DNA from: an uncultured Burkholderiaceae bacterium | GTDB lineage: Bacteria; Pseudomonadota; Gammaproteobacteria; Burkholderiales; Burkholderiaceae_C | DNA length: 64,000 nucleotides | NCBI GenBank assembly: GCA_964389235.1 | Contig: CAYMDM010000003.1 | Coordinates: 24,252-88,251, forward strand | Direction: 5' to 3' | Shown: piece after piece, positions 22,375-56,902 of the stretch | Position numbering within the stretch: position 1 is the stretch's first letter | Layout of the letters: each line of letters starts with the position of its first letter | The notes under the pieces: generated by a model | Databases searched by the model: none | What the model saw: only the letters and a program-made list of their open reading frames with translations | Told to the model about the DNA's origin: nothing | Program-made: the position numbers and the translations under genes

Positions 22375-22434
22375 CGCGCTTCATCTCCTGCTGTTGTGTA
22401 GGCGGGGTTCTTGCGCCCCACTTGCCTTTTTGTC

Positions 22435-33916: not shown

Positions 33917-33964
33917 ATTCGGGTGGCGGTGCCGCAGGGCCGCGGTGTCGCGGCACACAGCGGT

Positions 33965-35734: not shown

Positions 35735-35834
35735 GATCGGAGGAAAAGCTCGCATCGCGGCGCACGGCCGGGCGAAAGCCGCATTTTCGGTCATGACGGT
35801 CGCCGCCGCCTTGGGCGTCGGCGGGACACGGTAT

Positions 35835-36350
35835 TCAGTCCGCGCCGTTCGCAGGCGGTTGCGCTTGCAGCAACTGGCCGCGCGGCGCCTTCACGATAAG
35901 CACCTCCATCTGTGCGAGCTCACCTTGTGCATCGGAAACCGTCGCGGACACGGCGGCAGCCTGCGGCGACATCTGCCGGGAGCGGGTGTCGATGCGAACC
36001 GGGACATCCACTGCAACGGCCCGCCGAAAGGTGCACTTGCGCACCCCGGCCAGGACGCCGACGTGGTCGGCATCGAGTTCGGCCCTGTCGTCGCCGACCA
36101 GCATGCCGGCGCCTGCGACCTGCGCGACGGCCTCGATCAGGAACACGCCGGGCACCAGCGGCATGCCCGGGAAATGTCCCTGCAGAATCTGCATCTGAGC
36201 CGGCCAACAGGCCTCGCCGATGAAATGCGCGTTGCTCAGCACCTTGACACGGCGCACGAACAGAATGTCCCCGCGATGCGGAATCAGGGACTGGAGGTCG
36301 CGCAGACCGAGTTCGATGGGGAACTGTCGCGGACGGCGGGCAGGCGTCAT
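35835..36350 (-). CDS. FabZ/FabA-like hotdog 3-hydroxyacyl-ACP dehydratase
   Basis: Internal ATG 36350 gives MTPARRPRQF... Motif LIPHRGDILFV ... GHFPGMPLVPGVFLIEAVAQ. Confidence 0.75.
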   Translation of the reverse strand: MTPARRPRQFPIELGLRDLQSLIPHRGDILFVRRVKVLSNAHFIGEACWPAQMQILQGHFPGMPLVPGVFLIEAVAQVAGAGMLVGDDRAELDADHVGVLAGVRKCTFRRAVAVDVPVRIDTRSRQMSPQAAAVSATVSDAQGELAQMEVLIVKAPRGQLLQAQPPANGAD

Positions 36351-36429
36351 GCAGAAGCTCTCGCTGAGGCGGCTGGCAATCGCACAGCCGGCGTCGACGG
36401 CACCCTCACCACACCGCGCTGCGTGCGGC

Positions 36430-37152
36430 TCACGGGCATTGCCCTCCGGCCCGCACCCGCCGCCCCCACGCGGCCGGCACCAACAGTCGGCTCTGCGACA
36501 ACACCGCCCCGACCGCACCGAGCGGCGCGCCGCCCAGCACGTCGAGCAGCACATGCTGCTTGACTGCCATGGTCGAGTAGACGATGAGCCCACACCAGAT
36601 CACGCTGAAAGCGCGTGAGAGCGTGCCAAAACCCAGCCGCGGCAGCACGCGATCTAGCCAGATCGCGGCGAACACTGCCGTGGCGACGTGCAGCGAGGGG
36701 CAGGCGTTGCCCGAGGCGTCGATTCCGCGCAGCATCTCGAACCCGGGGGCGGAGGAGTAATCCAGCGCCATCGACGGCACGGCCGTGGGCCAGAAATAAA
36801 AAATGGTGAGACCGGCCAAGCACACCCCGCTGATGCCGACGCCGAAGCGCACGAGTTCGCTGCGGGAGGTCATCAGCGTGGGCGGCAGGCAGACGTAGAA
36901 CCAGAGCGACAGGTAAAGCGGCAACGCCCAGGGCTGAAATCCGATCCAGCGATCGATGGCCGTCAGCGGCATCAGGGTGACGGGGAATGCCGGATGGCGA
37001 AGCAAATGAAAGTAGGCGACGAAAAAACTCGTCATGATCGCGGTGGTGCCGATGGCCTTGAGCCAGAAATGCGTCCCGGCGATGCGCAGCAGATCACGCA
37101 TGCCGGGACGGCCGACCGGCGATTGGCGACGTGGGTTCTGGCTGCCGGTCAT
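36430..37152 (-). CDS. PAP2-superfamily integral membrane protein (lipid phosphate phosphatase/phosphotransferase type)
   Basis: Polytopic. C2-like PSLH and C3-like STMAVKQHVLLDVLGG motifs. No KxxxxxxRP (C1) motif seen. ATGA overlap with the upstream KS stop. Confidence 0.7.
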   Translation of the reverse strand: MTGSQNPRRQSPVGRPGMRDLLRIAGTHFWLKAIGTTAIMTSFFVAYFHLLRHPAFPVTLMPLTAIDRWIGFQPWALPLYLSLWFYVCLPPTLMTSRSELVRFGVGISGVCLAGLTIFYFWPTAVPSMALDYSSAPGFEMLRGIDASGNACPSLHVATAVFAAIWLDRVLPRLGFGTLSRAFSVIWCGLIVYSTMAVKQHVLLDVLGGAPLGAVGAVLSQSRLLVPAAWGRRVRAGGQCP

Positions 37153-38471
37153 GTCGGCTGAGCCGGCGGCGACTGCGCGTCAGTCACCCGCCGCGCGATC
37201 AGACACGCATTGCTGCCGCCGAACGCAAAGGAGTTGGACAGCACCGCGTCGACCCGGCGATCACGCCACGCCTCACGCCCGATCAGATTGATCTCGCAGC
37301 GGGGATCGGGCTGCTCCAGGGTTGCGTTGGGCGGCAGGGTCGAGTGGCGCATGGCCTCGATCGCGAGGATGAGTTCGACCACGCCCCCGGCGCCGATCAA
37401 GTGGCCATGCACCGCCTTGGTCGAGCTGACCGCCGGGCCGCTGCCGCCGCGGCCGAAAACCGCCGCGAGCGACTCGGCCTCGACGAGGTCGCCCGCATCG
37501 GTCGCGGTGCCGTGGGCGTTGACATAGCCGATGTCCTGCGGCTGCAGCCCCGCACTGTCCAGCGCCTGCCGCAGCGCGGCCACTTGCCCGGACACCGAAG
37601 GCGCGGTGAGGTGATGCGCGTCGCTGCTGGCGCCGTAGCCGGCAATCTCGGCCAGGGCATCCACGCCCCGCTCGCGGGCATGCGCCTCGCTCTCGATCAT
37701 CATCGCCCCTGCGCCCTCCCCCAGCACGAAGCCGTTGCGCCGCACATCGAACGGTCGGCAACTGGCCGCCGGGTCCGCCGCATCGGGCCGGGCCATGACC
37801 CGCAGCGCGTTCCACGCCACCATCGCCCCTGGCGTGAGCATGGCCTCGGAGCCGATCACCACCGCTGCATCCAGGTAGCCGTGGCGAACAGCGCGAAACG
37901 CCTCGCCCACGGCGATCGCCGAGGAAGCGCAGGCCACAGAGTAGGTGTTGCCCATGCCGCGCAGGCCGTAGCGCATCGACACCAGCGCCTGCGCCGAATT
38001 GGCCATCAACCGCGGCACCGTCAAGGGGTGGATGACGGTGGCCCGACGCCGCCCGGCTTCATCGCCGAACAGCAGGGTGAAGTAGCGCGTGAACATCGCG
38101 TCCAGGGTCTGCGCGCCACCAAACCCGATGCCGGCGAACACGCCGACGCGCTCCGGGCGCGGCAGACCGTCTGCGGCGCGCGCCTGCTCCGCGGCCTGCG
38201 CGGCGGCCACCAGGGCAAACTGGGTCGCGCGATCGAGGCCGGCATCGGTCGCGCCGAGCAGAGCCTGCGGATCGGCGCTGGCCGGCGCCCACAACAGATG
38301 AGGGATGCCTGCGCACTGTTCGGCTGGCGCCGGGCACACCCCGCTTCTCCCGGCAACCGCCGCGGCAAAACTCGGGGCAACGCCAACGCCGAGTGGGCCG
38401 ATCAGCCCCATGCCGGTGACCACGATCTTTGATGCGCGACCGTGCGGCGCTGCGGAATAGTGCGGCTCCAC
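37149..38471 (-). CDS. beta-ketoacyl-ACP synthase (FabF/KS II-like), catalytic triad intact
   Basis: Cys in SVACASS, His in AHHLTAP, His in NAHGTAT, then NSFAFGGSN. GTG start at 38471. Confidence 0.9.
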   Translation of the reverse strand: MEPHYSAAPHGRASKIVVTGMGLIGPLGVGVAPSFAAAVAGRSGVCPAPAEQCAGIPHLLWAPASADPQALLGATDAGLDRATQFALVAAAQAAEQARAADGLPRPERVGVFAGIGFGGAQTLDAMFTRYFTLLFGDEAGRRRATVIHPLTVPRLMANSAQALVSMRYGLRGMGNTYSVACASSAIAVGEAFRAVRHGYLDAAVVIGSEAMLTPGAMVAWNALRVMARPDAADPAASCRPFDVRRNGFVLGEGAGAMMIESEAHARERGVDALAEIAGYGASSDAHHLTAPSVSGQVAALRQALDSAGLQPQDIGYVNAHGTATDAGDLVEAESLAAVFGRGGSGPAVSSTKAVHGHLIGAGGVVELILAIEAMRHSTLPPNATLEQPDPRCEINLIGREAWRDRRVDAVLSNSFAFGGSNACLIARRVTDAQSPPAQPT

Positions 38472-38482
38472 GCCTCGCCCGC

Positions 38483-38770
38483 TCAGGAGTGAGTGGGCGC
38501 AGTCAGCGACTGCAGATCGGGCAATTCCCCGCCGTTGTGCGCGCGGATTTCGGCTTCGATCGCCGCGACCATTTCGCGAAAACGCATGCTCTGAAAGCGC
38601 ATCGGATCAGCGAGCTGAAAGCCGAAACGGTCTTCGATTTCGAACAGCATTTCCACCAGCCCCAGCGAGTCCAGGCCGAGATCGGCGACCGCCAGTTCGG
38701 GGTTGTCGAATTTCGCGGGGTCGACCTTGGCGTGGCTGATCAGATAGTTCTGGATGACCGGCTCCAGCAT
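38483..38770 (-). CDS. acyl carrier protein
   Basis: Internal ATG 38770 gives MLEPVIQNYL... Phosphopantetheine site DLGLDSLGLVEM. 95 aa. Confidence 0.8.
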   Translation of the reverse strand: MLEPVIQNYLISHAKVDPAKFDNPELAVADLGLDSLGLVEMLFEIEDRFGFQLADPMRFQSMRFREMVAAIEAEIRAHNGGELPDLQSLTAPTHS

Positions 38771-39076
38771 GCTGCTTCCTTCGAAACTCAGACTGAGGGG
38801 TTTGACCGGCCCCGAGGCCGATGAGGCCTGCAGCGGTGTTCGAGGACTAAACAACCTCAAGGAGGCCGGATGGCCCGCCGATGCTAACAGCGGGCATCGA
38901 ATTTCCAGAATTTACCGCCATGACGTTGCCCGCTCGCTACAGCGCGCCTGCCAACAATTCACGCTTCCTCACAATCAGCGCCGATGCGGCCGCAGAAAGG
39001 CCCGTGCAACCCGGCCTGACGCTTATCATTACCGGTTGATTTCGTTGGTTTTTCTGCCGCAGCGCACTCCCCAGAC

Positions 39077-39367
39077 ATGGCTTCTCAGACTTTGCCGCCG
39101 CCGACCGCCGATTCGTCCTTCGTGCAGGAACTCGGCCAGCTCATCATCGACACCCTGGGATTGGACGCATCAGCGGCCGAAATCGACCCCACCGCCCCGC
39201 TTTATGGCGACGGACTGGGGCTGGATTCCATCGACATCCTGGAGATCGCGATGGTCATCTCCAAAACCTACGGCGTGCAGTTGCGTGCCGATGACGCCGA
39301 CAACCACCGCATTTTCAGTTCGCTGCAGCACCTCGCCGACCACGTCGCGGCGCTGAGGGCGCGCTGA
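39077..39367 (+). CDS. acyl carrier protein (aryl-polyene ACP type)
   Basis: 96 aa, GLGLDSIDILEI Ser motif, first gene of the plus-strand operon. Confidence 0.85.
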   Translation: MASQTLPPPTADSSFVQELGQLIIDTLGLDASAAEIDPTAPLYGDGLGLDSIDILEIAMVISKTYGVQLRADDADNHRIFSSLQHLADHVAALRAR

Positions 39368-40089
39368 TGTCCTGGCGCTGGCCCGTTGCGCTTCGCGGCG
39401 CGGTGGCGCTCGGCATCGTCGCCTATCCCGCGATCGCGATCTGGAGCAGCAGCAAGCCCGAATGGCGTCTGCTCGCCTCGGCGCTGGCCTGGTCACCCCT
39501 CGCCCTCGCCGGCCTGTGGATGCTCTGGCGCAGTCGCGCCCGGCGCTGGCTGGCACCGTTGCTCCTTGCGGGTGTGCTGCTGCTCTGGGCCTTGCGCGCC
39601 GAATTGCTGGCGCATTACGCCTGGGCCTACCTAGTCGAGCACGCCGGCAGTCTGATTGTCTTCGGGCTGGTGTTCGGCAGCACCCTGCGCTCGGGGCAGA
39701 CGCCCCTGATCACGCGCTTTGCCGCGATGGTGCGCAAGAGCGTCTCGCCGGCGGTGGCGCGCTACACCCGCGGCGTCACCTGGGCTTGGACGCTGTTCTT
39801 CGGCGTGATGGCGCTGGCTTCCATTTTCCTGTTTCTCACCGTATCGCTGGCGGACTGGGCGCTGTTCGCCAGCGTGTGGACACCCGCTCTGGTCGTTGCC
39901 ATGTTCATCGCCGAGTATGCGATGCGCTGCCGCATACTCGACCGCGGCGACCATTCCGGGCCTTATGAAGCCGTGCGCGCCTATCTGCTCTACCGCAATG
40001 AGGCGGCATCGGCCCCATCGACGACAACGCAGAGCCGCGGCACGACCGCGCCGTCGATCGGGGCCACGCCCTCGGAGGTCGGCCGGTGA
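39367..40089 (+). CDS. integral membrane protein of aryl-polyene clusters (ApeG/COG4648-like)
   Basis: About 6 predicted helices. The position between ACP and AMP ligase matches ape/xan clusters. The start overlaps the ACP stop (TGATG). Confidence 0.6.
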   Translation: MSWRWPVALRGAVALGIVAYPAIAIWSSSKPEWRLLASALAWSPLALAGLWMLWRSRARRWLAPLLLAGVLLLWALRAELLAHYAWAYLVEHAGSLIVFGLVFGSTLRSGQTPLITRFAAMVRKSVSPAVARYTRGVTWAWTLFFGVMALASIFLFLTVSLADWALFASVWTPALVVAMFIAEYAMRCRILDRGDHSGPYEAVRAYLLYRNEAASAPSTTTQSRGTTAPSIGATPSEVGR

Positions 40090-41447
40090 CCGCGACGCTG
40101 CCTTTGCTGTCGCATCGCGACGAGCAGGCCGTGTTTGCCTGGCGCGAGGGAGCGCCCGTCACCGTAGCGGAGTTTCTGGCCGACGTTGCCGCGCTTGCCG
40201 AGCGTCTGCCGACCGGTCAGCATGTGCTCAATGTCTGTCGCGATCGCTACCTCACTGCCGTGGGCTTTGCCGCGGCGGTGGTCAGCGGCAAAGTCAGTCT
40301 GTTGCCGTCGACCCGCACGCCCGACACCATCGAGCAGTTGCGCCGCAGCGCCCCCGACCTGTTCTGTCTGGTCGACGGGCCGTGTGAAATCGACCTGCCG
40401 CAAGTTGCCTGTCTGCCGCGCGGCGAGCGCAGAAAGGGCGCAGAGTTCCATGTACCGGAAGTCGACGCCGACCGCGTGGTTGCCCGCGTCTACACCTCGG
40501 GCTCGACCGGGGTGCCCGTGCCACATGCCAAGACCTGGCGATCGCTGGTCGAGTGCACCCAAGCGGGGCGCGATCGGCTCGCCCTCCCCGCGGGTACGGC
40601 GCTGCTCGGCACGGTACCGGCGCAGCATATGTACGGCTTCGAGTCGACCCTGCTCATCGCCTTTCACGGCGGGCTGGCGCTCAGCGCAGCCCACCCCTTC
40701 TATCCGGGAGATGTGGCGGCCGAGCTCGCTCGACTGCCAGCACCCAGGCTGCTCGTGTCGACCCCGGTGCATCTGCGCGCCCTGCTTGCCTCCGGCGTCG
40801 CGCTGCCGGCGTTGCAGATGGTGCTGTGTGCCACCGCGCCGCTGTCCACCGAACTGGCCGCAGAGGTGGAGAGGGAATTCGGTGCACCGCTGCTGGAAAT
40901 CTACGGCTCGACCGAAACCGGGCAGATCGCCACGCGCCGTACCGCCCGCACGGACGTGTTCGAGCTGTTCCCCGGTGTGCAGCTCACCCCGATCGCCCCC
41001 GATGTCGCGCTGGCCTCGGGCGGACACCTGACCGAACCGACCCCCTTGCACGACGTGATTGAGCCGCTCGCGGGCGAGGGCCGTTTCCGCCTGCTCGGGC
41101 GTGGCGCGGACATGGTCAACATCGCGGGCAAACGCAGCTCGCTCGCGCATCTGAATCATCAGCTGTGCAGCATCCCCGGAGTGCTCGACGGCGCATTCCA
41201 CGCCCCAGCGTCCGATGCCCAGCAGGCCTCAGCCCGGCTGATGGCGTTCGTCGTCGCGCCCGGACTGACGCCGACCGCGGTCCGACGGGCACTGCGCCCG
41301 CGCATCGACCCGGCCTTCATGCCGCGTCCGTTGGTCTTGGTCGACGCATTGCCGCGCAACGCCACGGGCAAGCTGCCGCGCAGCGCCCTGGCCGCGCTGG
41401 CGCAGCAGCACGCGACGATGCCGGAGCCGCAAGCCCATGACGCTTGA
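40086..41447 (+). CDS. AMP-dependent aryl-acid:ACP ligase (adenylate-forming enzyme, XanA2/ApeH-like)
   Basis: GTG start (GTGA overlap). Motifs VYTSGSTGVPV, YGSTETG, GRGADMVNIAGKRSS and PRNATGKL. Confidence 0.88.
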   Translation: MTATLPLLSHRDEQAVFAWREGAPVTVAEFLADVAALAERLPTGQHVLNVCRDRYLTAVGFAAAVVSGKVSLLPSTRTPDTIEQLRRSAPDLFCLVDGPCEIDLPQVACLPRGERRKGAEFHVPEVDADRVVARVYTSGSTGVPVPHAKTWRSLVECTQAGRDRLALPAGTALLGTVPAQHMYGFESTLLIAFHGGLALSAAHPFYPGDVAAELARLPAPRLLVSTPVHLRALLASGVALPALQMVLCATAPLSTELAAEVEREFGAPLLEIYGSTETGQIATRRTARTDVFELFPGVQLTPIAPDVALASGGHLTEPTPLHDVIEPLAGEGRFRLLGRGADMVNIAGKRSSLAHLNHQLCSIPGVLDGAFHAPASDAQQASARLMAFVVAPGLTPTAVRRALRPRIDPAFMPRPLVLVDALPRNATGKLPRSALAALAQQHATMPEPQAHDA

Positions 41448-41757
41448 GCTGCCCCTGCCGGCTTTCGCTGCGGATCATCCGGCCTTCGCCGGCCACTTTC
41501 CCGGCAATCCCATCGTCCCGGGCGTGTTGCTGCTCGATGCCGCGCTGCAAGCGGTGTCCGGGCACCTGCCCACCGCCGCGGCGGAGCTGAAGGTGGACAG
41601 CGCCAAGTTTCTCGACGTCGTGCGGCCCGGTGAGCCGTTGTTGCTGCGGGTGGCGGCGGCGGCGAATGAGCGCCTGCAATTCGAACTGCAGCGCGCCGGT
41701 CAGGTCGTCGCCAGCGGCGTGCTCTCGATTCCGTTGTTATCGCCGGCGCAGCCATGA
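41437..41757 (+). CDS. small hotdog-fold dehydratase (FabZ-like, 106 aa)
   Basis: HPAFAGHFPGNPIVPGVLLLDAALQ motif. 11-nt overlap with the ligase gene. Confidence 0.7.
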   Translation: MTLELPLPAFAADHPAFAGHFPGNPIVPGVLLLDAALQAVSGHLPTAAAELKVDSAKFLDVVRPGEPLLLRVAAAANERLQFELQRAGQVVASGVLSIPLLSPAQP

Positions 41758-42752
41758 ATTCGCATCCCGGCTCCCTTCCCGATGTCGCATCGCCGCGGGC
41801 TGAACCTCGCGCCCCAGCAGCGTCGCCCCCGCCGGCCGAATGGCGGGGCCGGCGCGAACGCAGCAACGCACTGATGCTGCGCATCATGACCTGGATCTCG
41901 CTGACGCTGGGCCGGCGCGTCGCGCGGGTAGTGCTGCAGGGCATCAGCCTCTACTTCTTTGCCTTTTCGCCCAAAGCCCGCCGCGCTTCGCGCCACTACC
42001 TCACTCGCGCGCTCGGACGCCGGCCGCGCTGGAGCGAACGTCTCGGCCATATCCACGCCTTCGCGTCGACCATCCACGACCGCGTCTATCTGCTCAACGA
42101 CCGCAGCGATCTGTTCGACCTGTCGTTCGACGGGGTGGAACACCTCGAGCACGCGCTTGCAGCGGGTCGGGGCGTGATTCTGCTCGGCGCGCATTACGGC
42201 AGCTTCGAAGTGCTGCGCGCCGTCGGGCGGGCCCGGGGCGGAATGCACATCGCCCTGCTGATGTACCCGGACAATGCGCGCAAGATCAACGCCGCGCTGC
42301 ATGCGATCAACCCGGCGGCCGAGCACGACATCATTGCCCTCGGCCGCACCGACTCGATGCTGCGGGTGAGTGCGGCGCTGGATCGCGGCCACATCGTCGG
42401 CATCCTGGCCGATCGCTCGCTGCACCACGACACCGTGGCCACCCGCCGCTTTCTCGGCGCCGATGCAGCCTGGCCGCTGGGGCCGCTGCGCATCGCCGCG
42501 CTGCTGCGCCGACCGGTGCTTTTCATGGCCGGCACCTATCTGGGCGGCAACCGATACGAAGTCAGCTTCCGCCCGCTGGCCGATTTTTCCGACGTCGAGC
42601 GCCCGCAGCGTGCCCAAGCCGTTGCCTCCGCGCTCGACACTTACGTCGCCGAATTGGAGGCATGTTGCCGCCGCGTGCCGAACAACTGGTTCAACTTCTT
42701 CGACTTCTGGGCCGGGCCAGGCCCCCAGCCCACCAGGGTACCTTCGGCATGA
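41754..42752 (+). CDS. LpxL/HtrB-family (lipid A biosynthesis-type) acyltransferase
   Basis: N-terminal membrane anchor, HX4E motif in LLGAHYGSFE, ...GILADRS... ATGA overlap upstream. Confidence 0.8.
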   Translation: MNSHPGSLPDVASPRAEPRAPAASPPPAEWRGRRERSNALMLRIMTWISLTLGRRVARVVLQGISLYFFAFSPKARRASRHYLTRALGRRPRWSERLGHIHAFASTIHDRVYLLNDRSDLFDLSFDGVEHLEHALAAGRGVILLGAHYGSFEVLRAVGRARGGMHIALLMYPDNARKINAALHAINPAAEHDIIALGRTDSMLRVSAALDRGHIVGILADRSLHHDTVATRRFLGADAAWPLGPLRIAALLRRPVLFMAGTYLGGNRYEVSFRPLADFSDVERPQRAQAVASALDTYVAELEACCRRVPNNWFNFFDFWAGPGPQPTRVPSA

Positions 42753-43357
42753 CTGAGAGAATCCTCGCTGACCGGCGTCAGACCCTGCGTGCGCTGCTGT
42801 TCGCTGCATCGGCGGTGCTCGTTCCCTGGCCGGCGGCACGCGCGGCGACCTGGGATCTGCAGGCGCTGATGAAGGCGCTGGCCGCACGCAAGTCCGGCCG
42901 GGCGCAGTTCACCGAGGTCAAGACGCTGGCGCTGCTCAACGCGCCGATTGAGTCTTCGGGGCTGCTGCGCTTTGTCGCGCCGGATTTTCTGGAAATGCGC
43001 ACCCTCAAGCCCAAGCCGCAGACCATCGTCGTGCAGGGCGGGCAGGTCACGCTCGATTTCGACGGCCAACCGCGCCAGTTCAGCCTGGCCGACCACCCGG
43101 AAGTCGCCGCCCTGATCGACGGTATCCGCGCCACCCTCAATGGCGACCTCGCGGGGCTGCAGCGCGTCTACGCGACCTCGCTCAGCGGCAACGAGCAGCT
43201 GTGGACGCTCAAGCTGGTGCCGCGGCTGGCCGCAGCCCGCGCCAAGGTCAGCGAAATCGACATCAGCGGCTCCGGCGCAACGGTGCTGAACATCGCCATC
43301 GATCAGACCGATGGCGACCGCTCGCTGATGACCCTGCGCGAGATCCGGCAACCGTGA
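42749..43357 (+). CDS. LolA-like outer-membrane lipoprotein carrier family protein
   Basis: ATG 42749 (ATGA overlap) gives MTERILADRRQTLRALLFAASAVLVPWPAARA-A... Then ...FTEVKTLALLNAPIESSGLLRF..., as in the LolA-like proteins of ape/xan clusters. Confidence 0.7.
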   Translation: MTERILADRRQTLRALLFAASAVLVPWPAARAATWDLQALMKALAARKSGRAQFTEVKTLALLNAPIESSGLLRFVAPDFLEMRTLKPKPQTIVVQGGQVTLDFDGQPRQFSLADHPEVAALIDGIRATLNGDLAGLQRVYATSLSGNEQLWTLKLVPRLAAARAKVSEIDISGSGATVLNIAIDQTDGDRSLMTLREIRQP

Positions 43358-45726: not shown

Positions 45727-45733
45727 ATCCGCC

Positions 45734-47333: not shown

Positions 47334-47381
47334 TCGTTTATCGCTTTCGTTTCTGTTCCCCTCCTTTTCTTCGCTTCACAC

Positions 47382-49447: not shown

Positions 49448-49932
49448 ACCCCGTTACGAACCAGACCCGCGATCACGCCTGGATCGCGGCGCACATTCCC
49501 CACGCCGGGGCCATGTGTCTGCTCGACCGGGTGGTGGCGTGGGACGCGGAGCGGGTGGTGTGCTGTGCGACCAGCCACCGCAGCGCGTCCAACCCCCTGC
49601 GCCAACATGGGCGACTGGGCGCCGCCTGCGGCATCGAGTACGCGGCGCAGGCCATGGCGGTGCATGGCGCGCTCGCGGCCACCTGCGCGGCTGAAGCCGG
49701 GCGGATTGCCCGCCCTGGCATGCTGGTGAGCGTGCGCCATGTGGAACTGGCCGTCGGTCGGCTCGACGACCTTGCCGAAGACCTGGCCATCGAAGTCCGA
49801 CGCCTGAGCGGCAGCGAGCACAGCCTGCTCTACGCCTTCACCGTGACCGCCGCCGATCGCCTGCTGCTCAGCGGCCGGGCAACGGTGCTGCTGGCGCAGA
49901 CGCCGATGCCCACTGCCTCTGCCCAATCATGA
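49441..49932 (+). CDS. hotdog-fold dehydratase (ApeP-like)
   Basis: ATG 49441 overlaps the upstream stop. AHIPHAGAMCLLDRVVAWD ... GIEYAAQAMAVHG. Confidence 0.65.
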   Translation: MLNPVTNQTRDHAWIAAHIPHAGAMCLLDRVVAWDAERVVCCATSHRSASNPLRQHGRLGAACGIEYAAQAMAVHGALAATCAAEAGRIARPGMLVSVRHVELAVGRLDDLAEDLAIEVRRLSGSEHSLLYAFTVTAADRLLLSGRATVLLAQTPMPTASAQS

Positions 49933-50687
49933 CCGACCGCCAGAGCCCTCCCCCAATATCCGCAGCGCCGCGGCGTGCCCTGGTCACCGGCGGCAGCGGC
50001 GGCATCGGCTCGGCCATCTGCACGGCGCTGGCCGCCAGCGGACTGCAAGTGATCGTGCACGCGCAACGGCAGATCGAACGCGCCGAGGCCGTCGCGCAGC
50101 GGCTGCGCGATGCCGGTCACAGCGCCAGCGCAGTCGCCTTCGACCTGCGTGACGCCGCGGCGACCGCTACCGCAGTGGCCACGCTGCTGGAGCCAGGCCC
50201 GGTGCAGGTGCTGGTCAACAACGCCGGCATCCACGACGACGCCGTGTTTCCGGGCATGCGCGAGGAGCAGTGGGACGCGGTGATCGACGTCTCGCTCAAC
50301 GGCTTCTACCGCGTCACCCAGCCGCTGCTGCTGCCGATGATCCGCACCCGCTGGGGGCGCATCATCAACATCACCTCGGTCGCTGCCATCGCCGGCAACC
50401 GCGGCCAGGTGAATTACGCCGCGGCCAAGGGCGCGCTGCATGCGGCGACCCGATCGCTGGCGCTGGAAGTCGCCAGCCGCGGCATCACCGTCAACGCCGT
50501 CGCGCCGGGCATCATCGCCACGGCGATGAGCGAGGGCGCGTTCGATGCCGAAGCCATCAAGCGCCTGGTGCCGATGCAACGCGCCGGCCGACCCGACGAA
50601 GTGGCCGACCTCGTCGCCTACCTCGCATCCGACCGTGCGTCCTACATCACCGGTCAGATCCTCTCGGTCAACGGCGGGATGATCTGA
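49929..50687 (+). CDS. 3-oxoacyl-ACP reductase (SDR, FabG-like)
   Basis: TGGSGGIGSAI, NNAG and YAAAKGAL (YxxxK). ATGA overlap upstream. Confidence 0.9.
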   Translation: MTDRQSPPPISAAPRRALVTGGSGGIGSAICTALAASGLQVIVHAQRQIERAEAVAQRLRDAGHSASAVAFDLRDAAATATAVATLLEPGPVQVLVNNAGIHDDAVFPGMREEQWDAVIDVSLNGFYRVTQPLLLPMIRTRWGRIINITSVAAIAGNRGQVNYAAAKGALHAATRSLALEVASRGITVNAVAPGIIATAMSEGAFDAEAIKRLVPMQRAGRPDEVADLVAYLASDRASYITGQILSVNGGMI

Positions 50688-50747
50688 CCGCGCCGCTGCC
50701 ACTGCGCAACACGCTCCCCATCCCTCGACGCTGCACCGCACCCGATC

Positions 50748-52073
50748 ATGAGCACTCACGGTTCCTCGGTTCACGCCACCGAAGCCTTGCTGTTCTTCAC
50801 CCTGCTTCAACTCTCGATCATCGTGCTGGCCGGGCGCATCGGCGGCGCGCTTGCCCTGCGGCTCGGACAGACGGCCGCGGTGGGCGAGATCATCGTCGGC
50901 ATCATGCTCGGCCCTTCGCTGCTCGGCCTGCTCGCGCCGGGCGTGTTCGGCTACGTGTTTCACTCGGCCTCGGGCACGCCGCTGCAGATCCTCTCGCAGA
51001 TCGGTCTGGTGCTGCTGATGTTCCAGATCGGGCTGGAGTTCGACTTCGGCCATCTGCGCGAAAAGCAGCATCGCCGCAGCGTGCTGTGGATCGGCGTGGC
51101 GAGCATGGTGTTTCCGTTCGCGCTCGGGCTGGGCTTCGGCTGGTCGTCTGCCCAGGTGCTGTCGCCACAGGCGTCGCACGAAGCATCGGCGCTGTTCGTC
51201 GCAACGGCGTTTTCCATCACCGCACTGCCGATTCTCGGTCGCATCCTGATGGATTTCGGACTAAACCGTCTGCCGATGGGCGTGGTCGCGATCAGCGCGG
51301 CGGCAATCAACGACGTGGTCGGCTGGCTGCTGCTGGCGCTGATCACCCTGCTCAGCGTCAGCCAGTTCGCCCCGGGCGCCTTTGCCCTGCAGGTGCTGGC
51401 GGTGCTGGGCTTTGCCCTGCTGTGGCTGCTCGCGCTGCGCCCGCTGGCGCGGCGGGTGGTGCAGCACTTTCAGAAGTCCGGTGACGATCTGCCACCGCAT
51501 CTGCTGGGCGTGGTGCTGGTGGCGATTTTCATTTCGGCGATGGTCACCTACCAACTGGGCATTTTCGCGATCTTCGGCGGTTTCGCGATGGGGGTGGTGC
51601 TGCATCAGGAAACCCGTTTCGTGCAGGCCTGGAAGCGCCAGGTGGGGCCGTTCGTGCTGGTGTTCTTCCTGCCGATCTTTTTCACTTACACCGGGCTGCG
51701 CACTGACATCGGCGGACTGTCCTCGGCCGCGTTGTGGGGTTGGTGCGCGTTGCTCGTGCTGCTGGCGACTCTGGGCAAATTCGGCGGCGCCTACCTCGCC
51801 GCGCGTCTCACCGGCTCGTCCCACGCCGAAGCCGGGGTGATGGGTGCGCTGATGAACACCCGCGCGCTGATGGAACTCATCGTCATCAACGTCGGCTACG
51901 ACCTCGGCGCCATTTCCCGCAATTTGTTCACCATGCTGGTGATCATGGCGATCTTCAGCACGGTGATCACCGCGCCGTTGCTGCGGCTGTGGTTGCCGCG
52001 GGCCGGCTACGTCGTGCCGACGCGGCTGGGCGAGAACGGCGCCGCCGGCGCCCGCATCGCTCAGGAACTCTGA
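50748..52073 (+). CDS. cation:proton antiporter (CPA2 / Na+/H+ exchanger family)
   Basis: 441 aa with about 12 helices. ...LLQLSIIVLAGRIGGALALRLGQTAAVGEIIVGIMLGPSLLG..., the typical Kef/NapA-type N-terminus. Confidence 0.85.
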   Translation: MSTHGSSVHATEALLFFTLLQLSIIVLAGRIGGALALRLGQTAAVGEIIVGIMLGPSLLGLLAPGVFGYVFHSASGTPLQILSQIGLVLLMFQIGLEFDFGHLREKQHRRSVLWIGVASMVFPFALGLGFGWSSAQVLSPQASHEASALFVATAFSITALPILGRILMDFGLNRLPMGVVAISAAAINDVVGWLLLALITLLSVSQFAPGAFALQVLAVLGFALLWLLALRPLARRVVQHFQKSGDDLPPHLLGVVLVAIFISAMVTYQLGIFAIFGGFAMGVVLHQETRFVQAWKRQVGPFVLVFFLPIFFTYTGLRTDIGGLSSAALWGWCALLVLLATLGKFGGAYLAARLTGSSHAEAGVMGALMNTRALMELIVINVGYDLGAISRNLFTMLVIMAIFSTVITAPLLRLWLPRAGYVVPTRLGENGAAGARIAQEL

Positions 52074-52885
52074 ACGCCACCCCGCGCGTCAGCCCGATTC
52101 CGTTTTCTCCACAGCAGCAGCGGCAGCCGCAGCACAAAGCCAAGAAACAGCCGGGTGTGCATCCAGGTGAGCAACAGGTTGTCGCGCGCGTAGTTGAAGT
52201 GCGAAACGCCGCCTTCCTCGGCGCGCAGATAGCGCACTGGAGCGGGCAGGTTGATCGCCGGCACACCGGCCCAGCTCAGCCGCACGGCGGCCTCGGGGTC
52301 GAAATCGAAGCGCCGCATCAAACGCTGCCGCCGCATCACCGCGCGCAGCGGATCGATCGGGTAGACGCGAAAGCCGTAAAGCGAATCACCGATGCCCGCG
52401 CCCAGGGTCTCCAGGTTGGCCCAGGCATTGGAAATCTTGCGCCCCTGCACCCGCAGTTGCGGGGCGTCGGCGGCGAACACGGGTTTGCCCAGAATCATCG
52501 CCCGCGGATGCTGCTGCGAGGTGCGCATGAACTCGGCGATGCGATCGGCCGGATGCTGGCCGTCCGAGTCCATGGTCAGCGCGTGCGTGAATCCCGCCGC
52601 TCGCGCCGCCTCCAGCCCGGCGAGAACGGCGGCGCCCTTGCCACGGTTGCAGTCGAGCTGCAGCACGCGCAAGCCGCAATCGCGCTGCGCCATGTCCCGC
52701 AAGCCCTGCGCCGTGCCGTCGGTGCTGCCGTCGACCACCACCCACACCGGCGCCCACGCGCGGCGCGCCGCCCGCACCGTTTCGTATACCGCCGCGCCCG
52801 GGTTGTAGCTGGGAATCAGAACGAGGTGGCTGCTGCTGGGCAACGGCCCCTCGCCCTGCACGGCCTCAGCACTCGTTTGCGGCAT
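52061..52885 (-). CDS. family 2 glycosyltransferase
   Basis: Internal ATG 52885 gives MPQTSAEAV... Motifs LIPSYNPG, VVVDGSTDGT and TMDSDGQH, plus a C-terminal membrane helix. Confidence 0.8.
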   Translation of the reverse strand: MPQTSAEAVQGEGPLPSSSHLVLIPSYNPGAAVYETVRAARRAWAPVWVVVDGSTDGTAQGLRDMAQRDCGLRVLQLDCNRGKGAAVLAGLEAARAAGFTHALTMDSDGQHPADRIAEFMRTSQQHPRAMILGKPVFAADAPQLRVQGRKISNAWANLETLGAGIGDSLYGFRVYPIDPLRAVMRRQRLMRRFDFDPEAAVRLSWAGVPAINLPAPVRYLRAEEGGVSHFNYARDNLLLTWMHTRLFLGFVLRLPLLLWRKRNRADARGGVQSS

Positions 52886-53687
52886 CGTGCGAGCCCTGCG
52901 CCGAAAAGTCCGGCAGGGTGGCGTGGCGCAACACGTCACGGAAGTAGACGTCGATCTCACCCACCAGCTCGTGCACGTTCTGCGGCGGATCGAAGCGCCG
53001 GCCCAGGGTCACGCGGTAGGTGATCGGCAGACGCGGGATGCGATGCAACGCCCAACCCTTGGTGAGAAAGGGCGAGTCGCATTCGATCAACACCGTCTGG
53101 ATCGGCACCCCGGCCTGCTTGGCAATCAACCCGACGCTGCCCTTGATCGGCCCCACCGGATGGGCACTGCTGCGGGTGCCCTCGGGAAACATCAGCAGCT
53201 GATGGCCCTCGCGCAGGTCGGCAACGGCAAGGTGGATCATGCTGCGCAGGTCGTCGTTGCGGATGTACCGTGCCAGCCTTGCACCGGCACCGAGCGAGGG
53301 GTTGTCGACGATGCTCGACTTCATGATGCAGGCCAGCCCAGGCAGTCGCGAAATGACGAGCACTGCGTCGATCAGCGAGGGGTGATTCGGCGCGATGATC
53401 ATCGGCCCCTGCCCGCGCAGCGCATCGAGCGCCGTCAGGTCGAAGCGGCAGGCGCCTGTCGCGCTCAGCACCCGCAGATACCAGCGAAACGCGGTGTGGA
53501 TCAGCCAGCGTCCGACCCGGAGCCCCTGACGTCGCGGCAGCACGTAATACAGCGGCACCGCGAAAAGCGTCCACAGCAGTCCCAGCACCCCGAGCAGGGC
53601 CAGTCCGAAGTAGGTGCGCGCCGCGTCCCACAGCAGTCGCATCGGCGCTGCGACCTGACGCGGCAGCTTGAGTACGCCATCAGTCAT
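52866..53687 (-). CDS. PlsC-type lysophospholipid/1-acylglycerol-3-phosphate acyltransferase
   Basis: NHPSLID (HX4D) and FPEGTRS motifs. Start taken at ATG 53687 (MTDGVLKL...), 4 nt after the MipA stop; the track start 53750 is an alternative. Confidence 0.8.
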   Translation of the reverse strand: MTDGVLKLPRQVAAPMRLLWDAARTYFGLALLGVLGLLWTLFAVPLYYVLPRRQGLRVGRWLIHTAFRWYLRVLSATGACRFDLTALDALRGQGPMIIAPNHPSLIDAVLVISRLPGLACIMKSSIVDNPSLGAGARLARYIRNDDLRSMIHLAVADLREGHQLLMFPEGTRSSAHPVGPIKGSVGLIAKQAGVPIQTVLIECDSPFLTKGWALHRIPRLPITYRVTLGRRFDPPQNVHELVGEIDVYFRDVLRHATLPDFSAQGSHDAANEC

Positions 53688-54540
53688 GGCTGTCCACCAT
53701 CTGCGAAGACTGGCCGAGAATCCAGGCGATGCCAAATCCGGCCGAGACATTGCGCCGCTGCTGAACCAGCGGGCTGGCCGCGAACACCGCGCCGTGCAGA
53801 TCGTCCACGCGGACGAACGCGCCGACCCACACTCGCTCGAAGCGTCGGCTCAGCGCCGCAGTGAACTGGCTGCCGGCATAACCTCCCGGTGCCGAATAGG
53901 CCGGTCGCCACGGCTCGGCGTACTGGGGTTGCACGCCGTAGAAGGTCTCGTTGTAGCGCCGGCTGGCAAAAATCGGCCCGGTCTGCAAGCCCAGGTTCCA
54001 GCCGGCAAGCCCCAGCGGGCCGTCGATGTCCAAGTTGATGACGGGCGTGAACAACCAGCCGACCAGCCGCGGCTGGCGCGTGACGCTGAACACCGCGCGC
54101 ACCGGCGCGCGCAAGTCGAGCTGCATGCGCTGCGCGGGCGATCGCCAGAGGTGCACTTCCACCGCCGGCCCGAATTCCAGCGTCGGGTCGAGGTTGGGCA
54201 TGCCCTGACGGATGGGGTCGTCGTCGCTTCGCACCGGTGGCGAGGCGCCGAGGCTGAGGTAGGAATCCACCCGATCCTCGTCGAGCAGCTGCGCCTGCAG
54301 CCCACGCCGGTCGGCGCGAAGAATCTTGCCTCGGTAGACGAAATACGGAACCGGCACGAGGTAATTGGTGCGTCGGCTCGATCCGATGTAGTCGGGGAAA
54401 CTGATCGCGCCCACGCCCAGACCTGCCTCCCACAGCGGCTTCTGCTCGGCCGAGACCACGGGGGACAGCAGGGCCAGCGCCGCACCGATCAGACCGGCCC
54501 GCGACACCCGGCGGATCAAGACTGCACTCAGACCGCGCAT
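53680..54540 (-). CDS. MipA/OmpV-family outer-membrane protein
   Basis: Signal peptide ...SPVVSA-EQ, then GLGVGAISFPDYIGSSRRTNYLVPVPYFVYRG and beta-strand periodicity. The predicted C-terminus (...GQSSQMVDSHD) does not end in an aromatic residue. Confidence 0.72.
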   Translation of the reverse strand: MRGLSAVLIRRVSRAGLIGAALALLSPVVSAEQKPLWEAGLGVGAISFPDYIGSSRRTNYLVPVPYFVYRGKILRADRRGLQAQLLDEDRVDSYLSLGASPPVRSDDDPIRQGMPNLDPTLEFGPAVEVHLWRSPAQRMQLDLRAPVRAVFSVTRQPRLVGWLFTPVINLDIDGPLGLAGWNLGLQTGPIFASRRYNETFYGVQPQYAEPWRPAYSAPGGYAGSQFTAALSRRFERVWVGAFVRVDDLHGAVFAASPLVQQRRNVSAGFGIAWILGQSSQMVDSHD

Positions 54541-55550
54541 GCCACGGGACTCGTCTGGCGGGCAACGGCCTCGATCTCGACCAGCAGTTCACTGCGGCAG
54601 ACATCGGCCTGCACGAACCGGCACGGCACTTCACTTCCGGCCATCTCCCGGATCACCTGCTGCACCACCGGGCGATCGCCGGCACGACGCAGATAGACCT
54701 TGAGCTGCAGATCCGCCAGCTGCCAGTCGACACCCCGCCTGGCCCGCGCCTCGACGAGAACGGCGGCGATGTTGCGCAGGGTCTCCCGCGTCTGCTCGCG
54801 CACGTCGCCGAGGTGCCGCGATTCGTGCCCGACGATGCTGGCCGTGCCGGAAACGAACAGAAAGGGTGAGTCGAACTCGGCCAGACTGGCGCGCGAAAAC
54901 GTGGGCGCACGTGGCCCGTAGGCCTCGGGATAGTGATAGGCGCTGACCTGCCGCGGATTCTCGATCGCCAGCGCCGGCTTGCGTGCGGCGAGGGCGTAGA
55001 CCAGCAGGGGCGCCTCCGCGCTGGCACCCAGGGCGCTCGCCGCGGGCACGCTGCTGCCGGCCACCTGGCGACCGCTGGCCAGAAACGCCTGCTGGCGGCC
55101 GATGTTGAATTGCCGGTAGCGCTCCAGACCGTCGACCTGCGCGTTGATGTCGCCAACGTGGTTCCACACGCGCAGCAGGTGCCCATAGCCCTGCGCCGCA
55201 ACCGTGGCGAACAGCTCGCAGTAGACCTGTTCCGCCGCCGCCTGCAAGGACTGCCGGCCGTCATCCGTTGCGGCGATGAACATCACCTCGCCGTCGTCGC
55301 GCCAGCGCACCGGCCCGGCCCGGCCGGAACGTGCCGGACGCGGGCTCCACCAGACTTCGCAGCCCCAGGCGGGTTCACCCAGCAGCGGTGCGCGCACGAT
55401 GGCCAGCGGCACGTCCAGCGACCGCAACGCCGCAGGCACTTCGCCCACACCGAATGCCGCCACGCCCAGCAGCCCGGCCCGCCATGCTTCGGAGCGAGCG
55501 AGCAGTTCGTCGAGCCGCAGCTGCTGCACGTGCAGCGATCTGGCCTTCAC
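54528..55550 (-). CDS. FkbO/Hyg5/XanB2-type chorismatase (hydroxybenzoate-forming)
   Basis: GTG 55550 overlaps the halogenase stop (GTGA). HLLRVWNHVGDIN...ERYRQFNIGR...IENPRQVSAYHYPEAYGPRAPTFSRA...VSGTASIVGHES...ELLVEIEAV matches my memory of XanB2/FkbO. Confidence 0.75.
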   Translation of the reverse strand: MKARSLHVQQLRLDELLARSEAWRAGLLGVAAFGVGEVPAALRSLDVPLAIVRAPLLGEPAWGCEVWWSPRPARSGRAGPVRWRDDGEVMFIAATDDGRQSLQAAAEQVYCELFATVAAQGYGHLLRVWNHVGDINAQVDGLERYRQFNIGRQQAFLASGRQVAGSSVPAASALGASAEAPLLVYALAARKPALAIENPRQVSAYHYPEAYGPRAPTFSRASLAEFDSPFLFVSGTASIVGHESRHLGDVREQTRETLRNIAAVLVEARARRGVDWQLADLQLKVYLRRAGDRPVVQQVIREMAGSEVPCRFVQADVCRSELLVEIEAVARQTSPVACAV

Positions 55551-56902
55551 CCGCTCGCCCCTTCCGGCAGAGAAGCCGGCTGAATCTGCTTTTTGCGCAG
55601 CGCCCGAGCGCGCAGCGAGCGCCCGAGGTGTCGCAGCGACGCGAGGTAGAAAATGCCCTTGAGGATGGCCACCGAAGTCCAGATCGGCGTGCGGCCGAAA
55701 ATGTCCCCGGCCAGTACCGACAGCAGCGCCTCCTTGACGCGAAACACATTGCGCGGCCCCATGAACAGGTCGCGCATGGTCGGGTGATTGACGCGGTAGA
55801 TGAACCACGAGAACTCGCGCGGCCCGTGCCGCATCAGCCGGTCGAATCGCGCCATTGCCGCAGCCTCGGCCTGTGGGTCGCGCAGGCTGGTGACGATGGC
55901 GTCGGCCGCGGCGAAACCGCCCTGCATCGCCAGCATCACTCCAGAAGAGAACACCGGGTCGATGAAGGCATAGGCATCGCCCACCAGCAGCCAACCCGGG
56001 CCGTGGGTACGCTCACAGCTGTAGGAAAAATTCCCGGTGGCCTGGACATCCGACACGCGGGTGGCTCCCTTGAGGCGCGCGGCGAGTTCGGGCGCCATCG
56101 CGATGGTGTCGTCGAAAAATTCGGCCAGCGGCTTGTCTCGGGTTTTCAGGTAATACGGCCAGACCACGGCGCCGACACTGGTCGTGCCATCGGCCAGCGG
56201 GATGAACCAGAACCAGCCGTGGTCGAACCAGAAGATCGTGATGTTGCCTTCGGCTCGGCCCGGCAAGCGCTGGGCGCCGCTGAAATGGGCAAACAGCGCG
56301 GCGCTGTTGTGCTTGGGGTTGCGGTGTTTCATCTGCAGCCGGCCACCGAGGAAGGTGTCGCGCCCCGAGGCGTCGACCACGTAGCGTGCCGACCACTGCG
56401 AGCGGGTGCCGTCGTCGTGCTGGGCGACGATACGCGACTCCTTGGCCTGCGCATCGACCTCCACTTCCTCGACCTTGCAGGCCTCGACCACCCGCGCGCC
56501 GCAGCGGTGGGCGTTGCGCAGCAGCAGGTGATCGAACTCGGAGCGGCGCACCTGAAAGGCCATCGGCATCGACTTGTCCCAGGCGTCGGCAAACTCGAAC
56601 GTCTGGGTTTTCTGCGCATGCCAGGGCGACACGAATTCGGCGCCCCACTTCTCCATGCCGATCGCCCTCACCTCGTCGGCAACACCCAATTGTTCGAGCA
56701 AGGCGAGATTGGCCGGCAGCAGCGATTCTCCGATGTGAAAGCGCGGATGCCGGTCCTTCTCCAGCAACGCCACGCGCACGCCCTGTTGCGCCAGCCGTGT
56801 GGCCACCGTGGTGCCCCCAGGGCCGCCGCCGATGACCAGCACGTCGTAGCGTCCTCCGGCCGTATCGGCGCTGCTCGCGCCGGGCTTCGCATCGGTGGGC
56901 AT
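55547..56902 (-). CDS. FAD-dependent halogenase (tryptophan-halogenase family)
   Basis: Internal ATG 56902 gives MPTDAKPG...YDVLVIGGGPGGTT (GxGxxG), RFHIGESLLP, and the halogenase signature WxWxIP as GWFWFIP. Confidence 0.85.
   Translation of the reverse strand: MPTDAKPGASSADTAGGRYDVLVIGGGPGGTTVATRLAQQGVRVALLEKDRHPRFHIGESLLPANLALLEQLGVADEVRAIGMEKWGAEFVSPWHAQKTQTFEFADAWDKSMPMAFQVRRSEFDHLLLRNAHRCGARVVEACKVEEVEVDAQAKESRIVAQHDDGTRSQWSARYVVDASGRDTFLGGRLQMKHRNPKHNSAALFAHFSGAQRLPGRAEGNITIFWFDHGWFWFIPLADGTTSVGAVVWPYYLKTRDKPLAEFFDDTIAMAPELAARLKGATRVSDVQATGNFSYSCERTHGPGWLLVGDAYAFIDPVFSSGVMLAMQGGFAAADAIVTSLRDPQAEAAAMARFDRLMRHGPREFSWFIYRVNHPTMRDLFMGPRNVFRVKEALLSVLAGDIFGRTPIWTSVAILKGIFYLASLRHLGRSLRARALRKKQIQPASLPEGASG

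Follow-up and report, generated by a model that had tools for sequence, protein, structure and literature searches.

A 21-kb type II polyketide locus for a probable aryl-polyene pigment of the xanthomonadin/arcuflavin subtype in an uncultured Burkholderiaceae bacterium

Arcuflavin of Azoarcus sp. BH72 is encoded by two unlinked loci, arcA-L (azo3910-3921) and arcM-X (azo0253-0264) (Schoner et al. 2014, PMC3949708). Mutants with insertions in arcK or arcT lost the yellow pigment and were colourless, ArcB made 3-hydroxybenzoate (3-HBA), ArcT adenylated 3-HBA, and the aryl part of arcuflavin was labelled from d3-methionine and accepted 4-fluoro-3-HBA; the compound is a non-brominated O-methyl aryl heptaene present as an ester with a dialkylresorcinol (DAR) (PMC3949708). 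Solved structures are available for the related aryl polyene (APE) system, with 7F28 and 6QSP representing ApeO-ApeC heterodimers and 7F27 representing ApeR (PMC8358021). In Lysobacter, the pigment protects against UV and H2O2 (PMC3691225). XanA2 of Xanthomonas is described in print as a ligase that joins 3-HBA to an acyl carrier protein (ACP). Here, a 64-kb stretch of contig CAYMDM010000003.1 from an uncultured Burkholderiaceae bacterium, referred to as the window, was analysed for a 21-kb locus which we read, with a probability of roughly 0.85, as a type II polyketide cluster resembling fatty acid synthase (FAS), for a membrane-bound aryl-polyene pigment of the xanthomonadin/arcuflavin subtype.

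The raw open reading frame (ORF) lists were crowded because of the high GC content of the window (64-74%), and they were filtered by GC content at third codon positions (GC3) before the survivors were scanned with Pfam and NCBIfam. A total of 23 genes were called from 35835 to approximately 56902, between glnS and a small secreted-protein gene, and three transcription units were predicted. The first unit runs leftward and holds ACP1, the ketosynthase (KS) KS1, a PAP2-family phosphatase and the dehydratase (DH) DH0. The second runs rightward from ACP2 to a Na+/H+ exchanger, in the order ACP2, membrane protein, AMP ligase, DH1, LpxL-type acyltransferase, LolA-like carrier, MMPL exporter, NodB deacetylase, methyltransferase, KS2, half-length chain-length factor (CLF), DH2, FabG-type ketoreductase (KR) and Na+/H+ exchanger. 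The third runs leftward from the flavin halogenase through the chorismatase, MipA and the PlsC-type acyltransferase to the GT2 glycosyltransferase.

An earlier first-pass annotation, made from the sequence without database searches, had listed about 23 consecutive genes between glnS and a small secreted-protein gene, and the present count and the signal peptide of the small ORF agree with it. The two ACPs (DSLG and DSID sites), the two KS with Cys-His-His and the half-length protein without the active-site Cys were all read again in the translations. Pfam families confirmed the ligase, chorismatase, WxWxIP halogenase (present as GWFWFIP) and methyltransferase, and supported the LpxL, PlsC, GT2, NodB, LolA-like, MMPL and MipA/OmpV assignments, while the PAP2 phosphatase and the Na+/H+ exchanger had been left unnamed. 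Three HFPGxPxxPGV/hotdog dehydratases had been claimed; DH0 and DH1 carry the motif and the third (49441-49932) is an ApeP-like hotdog protein without it. The six 4-nt ATGA/GTGA start-stop overlaps at 40086, 41754, 42749, 43354, 48611 and 49929 are all present, and the KS1/PAP2 junction on the minus strand (37149-37152) provides a seventh. As had been stated, no regulator, thioesterase, tyrosine or histidine ammonia-lyase (TAL/HAL) or integrase family was matched in the locus with Pfam and NCBIfam, and the tRNA scan found no tRNA at the cluster borders.

Six products of the polyketide core are encoded in the rightward unit:

39077-39367, plus strand: ACP2, ApeE-type carrier protein (DSID), NF006617 at 116.8 bits against a cut-off of 70
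41437-41757, plus strand: DH1, ApeI-like hotdog dehydratase (HFPGNPIVPGV), PF07977, with PF22818 precomputed on the identical protein
47382-48614, plus strand: KS2, ApeO-type elongating ketosynthase, NF006618 at 536.6 bits against a cut-off of 407
48611-49447, plus strand: half-length CLF of the ApeC/arcJ/Lysobacter ORF16 type, PF13723 at 94 bits
49441-49932, plus strand: DH2, ApeP-like hotdog protein, PF22817 precomputed on the identical protein and weak in our own Pfam scan
49929-50687, plus strand: KR, FabG-type (ApeQ/FabG3 type), NF004200 at 357 bits against a cut-off of 273

Three of these products, ACP2, KS2 and KR, passed the curated cut-offs of NCBIfam models of the APE-cluster type, and they share 47%, 45% and 43% identity with E. 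coli ApeE, ApeO and ApeQ, respectively. KS2 is the reciprocal best match of E. coli ApeO and keeps an intact Cys-His-His triad (ACSSS...HGTAT...GHTLGAAG). Its top PDB matches are also ApeO (7F28_B with 269 bits and 6QSP_A with 253 bits), with FabF at 174 bits or less. The CLF, a protein of 278 aa with no KS active-site motif and no active-site Cys, matched only the ApeC chains 7F28_A and 6QSP_B in PDB and shares 30% identity with E. coli ApeC; the KS2 stop and the CLF start overlap by 4 nt. DH1 gave weak matches to XdApeI 6QSR and E. coli ApeI. DH2 lacks the HFPGxPxxPGV motif, matched E. coli ApeP weakly and had no match in the PDB search. A housekeeping type II FAS was ruled out by equivalog scores below the cut-offs and by the APE-cluster context, with KS1 at 363 bits against the 493.75 of the fabF model, KS2 at 219 bits (FabF) and ACP1 at 31.8 bits against the 70.45 of AcpP.

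The E. coli CFT073 ape cluster was fetched and its proteins were compared with those of the window in both directions. Fifteen window products had a counterpart in it, of which 13 also matched in reverse. In addition, GTDB species representatives were scanned with a KS2 alignment, which produced at least 536 loci with 73% identity for the best match listed; the window proteins were then compared by tblastn with 80 of these loci, 50 of which had full flanks (10 kb). The ACP2-to-KR core was found in 46-50 of the 50 fully flanked loci, all from other species and mostly from Betaproteobacteria, with the weakly conserved membrane protein picked up in 39. The GT2 and PlsC-type genes were found in 32-38 of the full loci and the methyltransferase in 22. 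For the halogenase and the chorismatase, the counts of 20 and 15 are minimum values set by the 10-kb flank. Hosts included Sulfuriferula, Gallionella, Hydrogenophaga, Polaromonas, Cupriavidus, Paraburkholderia, Azoarcus, Methylophilaceae and Steroidobacteraceae. Schoner et al. (2016) reportedly characterised a Variovorax paradoxus APE as well.

Every step of the pathway proposed here was assigned by homology to characterised enzymes, and the roles in anchoring and export were modelled on the Xenorhabdus APE-lipid structure and on E. coli deletion studies. The chorismatase would convert chorismate to 3-HBA, possibly also to 4-hydroxybenzoate (4-HBA), and the AMP ligase would adenylate 3-HBA and load it onto ACP2, as ArcT, XanA2 and ApeH suggest. 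ACP2 probably carries both the aryl starter and the growing polyene. KS1, the probable initiating KS, would perform the first extension with malonyl-ACP, after which a KS2:CLF heterodimer of the ApeO:ApeC type would iterate and the KR and the ApeI/ApeP-like dehydratases would process each round. No enoyl reductase family was matched in the locus with Pfam and NCBIfam, and therefore a conjugated hepta- or octaene is expected. The ring hydroxyl would be O-methylated by the S-adenosylmethionine (SAM)-dependent methyltransferase, and, given available halide, the flavin halogenase may put Br or Cl on the aryl group bound to the carrier. The PlsC-type, GT2 and LpxL-type enzymes would join the polyene to a glyco- or glycerolipid anchor, a step to which the NodB deacetylase and PAP2 phosphatase may contribute. 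Finally, the ApeG-like protein, LolA-like carrier, MMPL/RND pump and MipA would bring the product to the outer membrane, where the pigment would serve as a photoprotectant and antioxidant.

The products assigned to lipid anchoring and export, together with the Na+/H+ exchanger, are as follows:

39367-40089, plus strand: ApeG-like integral membrane protein, 28% identity over 92 aa to E. coli ApeG (E = 4e-7)
41754-42752, plus strand: LpxL-type acyltransferase, PF03279 at 50.1 bits, aligning to ApeJ residues 248-555
42749-43357, plus strand: LolA-like periplasmic carrier (ApeL type), PF19574 at 74.5 bits
43354-45726, plus strand: MMPL/RND exporter (ApeM type), PF03176, 24-25% identity over 672-802 aa to ApeM
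45734-46588, plus strand: NodB-family polysaccharide deacetylase (arcN type), PF01522 at 104 bits
50748-52073, plus strand: Na+/H+ exchanger, CPA-type (arcG type), PF00999 at 164 bits, arcG being at the same position in Azoarcus BH72
52061-52885, minus strand: GT2 glycosyltransferase, PF00535 at 70.9 bits, 41% identity to ApeJ residues 6-242
52866-53750, minus strand: PlsC-type lysophospholipid acyltransferase (ApeD/arcD type), PF01553 at 57.6 bits, 27-28% identity to ApeD
53680-54540, minus strand: MipA/OmpV outer-membrane protein (arcC type), PF06629 at 135.9 bits, at the same position as arcC

E. coli ApeJ (558 aa; 8212-9888 of locus L087) unites a GT2 domain and an LpxL-type acyltransferase in one protein. 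The GT2 and LpxL-type products of the window align to separate halves of it, hence the E. coli fusion is represented here by two genes, approximately 9 kb apart and on opposite strands. The ApeG-like protein has no Pfam or NCBIfam family and its position is kept in 39 of the 50 full loci, and NodB is present in 49 of them. The LolA-like carrier scored 54.8 bits with the flexirubin LolA2 model, below the cut-off, and matched ApeL weakly. The plus-strand operon closes with the Na+/H+ exchanger gene, whose 3'-terminal 13 nt (52061-52073) are shared with the convergent GT2 gene; homologs with 59-67% identity follow the KR in those mapped loci that have the gene (L046, L029, L007, L049 and L015), and a homolog was found in 13 of the 80 compared loci.

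On the nature of the anchor, it is possible, and put forward here only tentatively, that the product is a still-undescribed aryl-polyene glycolipid with a methoxylated and perhaps halogenated ring, an amino-sugar anchor, an acyl chain made by ACP1-KS1-DH0 and delivery by MipA. The split ApeJ pair would then join the polyene to an amino sugar de-N-acetylated by NodB and dephosphorylated by PAP2, ACP1-KS1-DH0 would build a second, possibly conjugated, acyl chain as proposed for ApeF in Xenorhabdus, and MipA would replace the LolB-like ApeN in outer-membrane delivery. If true, the membrane anchor of xanthomonadin-type pigments, long unknown, would thereby be defined.

Alternatively, the polyene may be esterified to a DAR made by darA and darB elsewhere in the genome, which would give an arcuflavin- or flexirubin-like compound and not a glycolipid. 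Arcuflavin, the closest chemically defined relative, is such an ester with dar genes unlinked to the arc loci, and Dechloromonas, Variovorax and Sideroxydans also carry both cluster types (PMC3949708). However, dar genes were present in only 16 of the 39 genomes surveyed in 2014 (PMC3949708), and the locus keeps a full ApeD/ApeJ-type anchoring set along with PAP2 and NodB, genes that a simple DAR ester would not need. No DarA or FabH-like DarB candidate was seen among the genes scanned across the 64-kb window, a result to be read with the unlinked dar genes of Azoarcus in mind. Overall, the DAR ester is considered unlikely.

Starter supply and tailoring are assigned to four products:

40086-41447, plus strand: aryl-acid AMP ligase (ApeH/ArcT/XanA2 type), PF00501 and PF13193
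46575-47333, plus strand: SAM-dependent methyltransferase (arcM type), PF13489 and related families, 252-aa gene call
54528-55520 (start approximate), minus strand: chorismatase of the FkbO/Hyg5/XanB2 family (arcB type), PF21168 at 123.6 bits
55547-56902 (alternative upstream start possible), minus strand: flavin-dependent halogenase (arcA type), PF04820 at 104.9 bits

The AMP ligase is 26% identical to ApeH over 445 aa and has the same position as arcT. The top PDB matches of the chorismatase were Hyg5 (5AG3, 165 bits) and FkbO (4BPS, 154 bits), and it keeps the Cys at the aligned position where 5A3K has a Ser. Among the genes scanned across the window, none matched an aromatic ammonia-lyase family. 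The identity of the starter bears on the product, since 4-HBA would give a 4-hydroxyphenyl polyene of the E. coli/Vibrio type. XanB2-type enzymes make 3-HBA together with 4-HBA, and the substrate specificity of ArcT was low in vitro (PMC3949708). ApeH-type ligases load 4-HBA. Against this, Azoarcus incorporated only 4-fluoro-3-HBA and not 3-fluoro-4-HBA (PMC3949708), a Lysobacter ORF5 mutant was rescued by 3-HBA (PMC3691225), and the best structural relative of the chorismatase is Hyg5, a 3-HBA-forming enzyme, which together make a 4-HBA starter improbable.

The methyltransferase showed 58% identity in Azoarcus sp. L1K30 and no similarity to E. coli ApeB. The halogenase has intact GGGPGG, GWFWFIP and FIDPVFSSG motifs, and its top PDB matches were 8ZOP, 3E1T, 5BUK, ChlB4, PltA and CmlS. 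Several of these (e.g. CndH, which is 3E1T, and PltA) act on carrier-tethered substrates. None of the papers searched mentions 8ZOP, the top match.

The leftward unit at the glnS end, the left arm, carries four genes:

35835-36350, minus strand: DH0, FabZ/FabA-like hotdog dehydratase (HFPGMPLVPGV), Pfam FabA at 35.7 bits
36430-37152, minus strand: PAP2-family membrane phosphatase, PF14378 at 39.4 bits and PF01569 at 35.9 bits
37149-38471, minus strand: KS1, full-length ketosynthase and probable ApeR counterpart, PF00109 and PF02801
38483-38770, minus strand: ACP1 (DSLG), second carrier protein and weak ApeF counterpart, PF00550 at 30.5 bits

KS1 also has an intact Cys-His-His triad (ACASS...HGTAT...GHLIGAGG), and it is the reciprocal best match of E. 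coli ApeR with 33-35% identity. ACP1 is the reciprocal best match of E. coli ApeF, weakly. In Thiomonas sp. FB-6, where KS1 (69% identity) adjoins the cluster and ACP1 shows 74% identity, the genes ACP-KS1-PAP2 lie directly upstream of ACP2 on the same strand with 66-74% identity, and in Rhodoferax saidenbachensis ACP-KS1-DH lies beside another APE-type cluster. The arm thus represents a conserved cluster module, inverted here. For DH0, the likely start is the Met at 36350 within an open frame that extends to 36593; it scored 60 bits with NCBIfam FabZ, below the cut-off, and showed 66% identity in L004 and 40% to the ApeI-like DH after the Rhodoferax KS1 homolog. That the arm is an unrelated lipid module merely beside the pigment cluster is quite unlikely, as the FabF-like KS1, the generic ACP1 and the divergent transcription that would favour it are outweighed by the Thiomonas and Rhodoferax arrangements, by PAP2 homologs (47-70% identity) within the cluster in 17 of the 50 full loci and in Thiomonas FB-6, by the reciprocal matches to ApeR and ApeF and by the KS1 score below the fabF cut-off.

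PAP2 recurs in clusters of this kind, and in many genomes, among them loci L007, L010, L015, L023 and L029, it fills the slot between NodB and KS2 where the window has the methyltransferase; the window has each of the two genes, PAP2 being relocated to the left arm. In Azoarcus, darC-darJ-darK (ACP-KS-hypothetical) were assigned to dialkylresorcinol synthesis by proximity (PMC3949708), and these genes might instead be a polyene-associated module like ACP1-KS1-PAP2.

Several points weigh against the reading of the locus as an aryl-polyene pigment cluster. The cluster has no thioesterase or ApeN/LolB-like gene. KS1 is tied to the pathway by context and reciprocal best match only, and in PDB it scored higher with T. 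thermophilus FabF (301 bits) than with AbApeR 7F27 (200 bits). The homology support for DH2 and the ApeG-like protein is weak. The chorismatase scored 233 bits with TIGR04444, under the cut-off of 325, and the product of such an enzyme is not predictable from sequence (PMC3949708). The pigment of Azoarcus is non-halogenated although its locus encodes ArcA (PMC3949708). In addition, the pathway roles given to PAP2, NodB, DH0 and the Na+/H+ exchanger are guesses, and the likeness to Xanthomonas is taken from descriptions in PMC3949708 and PMC3691225.

The central claim of the first-pass annotation, a xanthomonadin-type locus embedded in core genome, agrees with the family scores, solved structures, reciprocal matches, synteny and core flanks found here. 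Its chorismate-derived starter is in line with the unmatched ammonia-lyase family and the in-cluster chorismatase (PF21168, with Hyg5 and FkbO as top PDB matches). The separation of the ketosynthases from housekeeping FabF holds for KS2, which scored about 95 bits better with ApeO; for KS1 the signs are divided, a higher PDB score with FabF standing beside the reciprocal match to ApeR. Synteny of the neighbouring genes with ape/xan-type clusters was found in the E. coli ape cluster, the arc loci and the 46-50 of 50 loci that share the core order. The collinearity it had proposed stands for the E. coli ape order and extends to Azoarcus arc and about 50 other genomes, while the Xanthomonas order is reported to be different. 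It had also predicted a halogenated, O-methylated ester: O-methylation matches arcuflavin, and halogenation of the product is uncertain because arcuflavin is non-brominated although the arc locus has the same halogenase. Two statements need revision. The product class was said, with a knowledge limit flagged, to be chemically undefined in Rhodocyclales-like betaproteobacteria, and arcuflavin was described from Azoarcus sp. BH72 in 2014 (PMC3949708). The guess of a Rhodocyclales-like host is probably off, since Thiomonas, a member of Burkholderiales, supplied the best named matches to KS2 and KS1, and other Burkholderiales are also among the best named relatives, pointing to a Thiomonas-like host.

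Core genes flank the cluster, namely nuo, tpiA, pnp, rpsO, tsaD and glnS to its left and a HerA-like gene, yebC and purD to its right. The immediate left neighbour is:

33965-35794, minus strand: glnS

The GC content of the locus is no different from that of the flanks, with no compositional break, and a repeat search of 35-58 kb gave short chance matches only and no island borders. The sole tRNA in the window is a tRNA-Leu (GAG) at 22435-22519, which was also the only hit of the Rfam scan, and an ARAGORN search of the whole window gave no tmRNA gene. Promoter and terminator scans of 35.7-39.2 kb and 50.6-57.7 kb gave sites not above shuffled sequence. The cluster adjoins glnS in L023 and L046, and a HerA-like gene with 76% identity follows the halogenase in L027. 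From this adjacency in other genomes, the cluster appears to be vertically inherited in a conserved chromosomal slot. A mobile island was ruled out, with no GC shift, integrase, tRNA or repeat and with the glnS and HerA-like neighbours kept in other genomes.

Other features of the window are a small ORF at approximately 57229-57618 (plus strand), which encodes a signal peptide (cleaved at AQA|GG), is rich in Pro/Tyr in its middle and in His/Arg/Trp at its C-terminus and has no Pfam family, and a HerA-like C-terminal-domain ATPase at 57636-59192 (minus strand; PF05872, 749 bits), directly right of the cluster. Left of glnS, 32393-33958 (minus strand) encodes a PF10014 2OG-Fe dioxygenase and a Tll0287-like protein with no pigment link seen. 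An SRPBCC/polyketide-cyclase-like protein is encoded at 2047-3085, divergent from smpB, and complex I nuo genes (NuoN/M/L-type and 49-kDa subunit matches) lie within 7276-22519 on the minus strand, a stretch that includes the tRNA-Leu preceding them.

Overall, the locus is an ordinary, intact copy of a very widespread family of biosynthetic gene clusters, close members of which, from Azoarcus, Xanthomonas, Lysobacter and E. coli, are already the subject of chemical study, and it matters little beyond annotation. Genetics, enzymology and a product structure are on record for its subtype. Its modest value lies in bringing together, within a single 21-kb stretch, an E. coli-type core of two KS, a CLF and two ACPs and starter and tailoring genes of the Xanthomonas/Azoarcus type, a size convenient for heterologous expression, which could bear on the activity of the subtype's conserved halogenase and on the lipid anchor of the pigment.

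Compared with the apeA-R cluster of E. coli CFT073 and Xenorhabdus doucetiae, which produces an APE lipid, counterparts exist here for the functions of ApeC to ApeJ, ApeL, ApeM and ApeO to ApeR, with KS1 as the probable one for ApeR, and the E. coli order E-G-H-I-J-L-M...O-P-Q is collinear with the window. Unlike in E. coli, the CLF lies beside KS2, the equivalents of ApeR/ApeF and ApeD are relocated and ApeJ is split. No counterpart of the ApeK thioesterase, ApeN (DUF3261), ApeA or the ApeB methyltransferase was found in the window, and the chorismatase, halogenase, NodB, PAP2, MipA, DH0, methyltransferase and Na+/H+ exchanger are extra. PAP2, NodB, the division of ApeJ, DH0, the exchanger and the substitution of MipA for ApeN are common to the subtype and not specific to the window.

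The closest named genome found was the uncharacterised Thiomonas sp. FB-6 (GCA_000377645.1, KB898471.1, approximately 291-303 kb), with a cluster at 50-74% identity that shares ACP-KS1-PAP2-ACP2-hypothetical-ligase-ApeI-LpxL-LolA-MMPL-NodB-KS2-CLF. There, ACP-KS1-PAP2 (L084 9657-11931) is co-directional with the main operon, whereas it is inverted in the window (35835-38770); DH0 and the methyltransferase were not seen in the stretch fetched. The Lysobacter enzymogenes OH11 cluster shares the KS (CSSS) with a half-length CLF, ACP, KR, two FabA/Z-like DHs, a XanB2 homolog, LolA and exporters (Wang et al. 2013, PMC3691225). It has a regulator and no halogenase or methyltransferase (PMC3691225). 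By the literature, the Xanthomonas pig/xan cluster has in common with the window a type II polyketide synthase that includes a KS with a half-length CLF, chorismatase-derived 3-HBA, a 3-HBA:ACP ligase, a FabG-type KR and a halogenase. Its gene order differs, with seven transcription units, and Xanthomonas clusters reportedly lack a second ACP (Johnston et al.) whereas the window has two.

The arc comparison was made between the published Table 1 of PMC3949708 and the window map, and concerns gene families and order; an Azoarcus genome in the GTDB scan (L012) showed 45-75% identity to the window proteins. The order arcK-A corresponds to 47382-56902 of the window, with KS, KS N-terminal protein, DH, KR, antiporter, (argC-like), glycosyltransferase, acyltransferase, MipA, chorismatase and halogenase. 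The order arcM-V corresponds to 39077-47333 reversed, with methyltransferase, deacetylase, hypothetical protein, exporter, LolA, acyltransferase, DH, ligase, hypothetical protein and ACP. The window differs from BH72 arc in having no argC-like gene, peptidoglycan-binding gene or two-component system, and in its extra divergent ACP1-KS1-PAP2-DH0 arm. From the match in gene content and order, the 21-kb locus is a fused, single-locus version of the arc system, and it combines an E. coli-type core, with two ACPs and a probable ApeR-like KS, with Xanthomonas/Azoarcus-type starter and tailoring genes.

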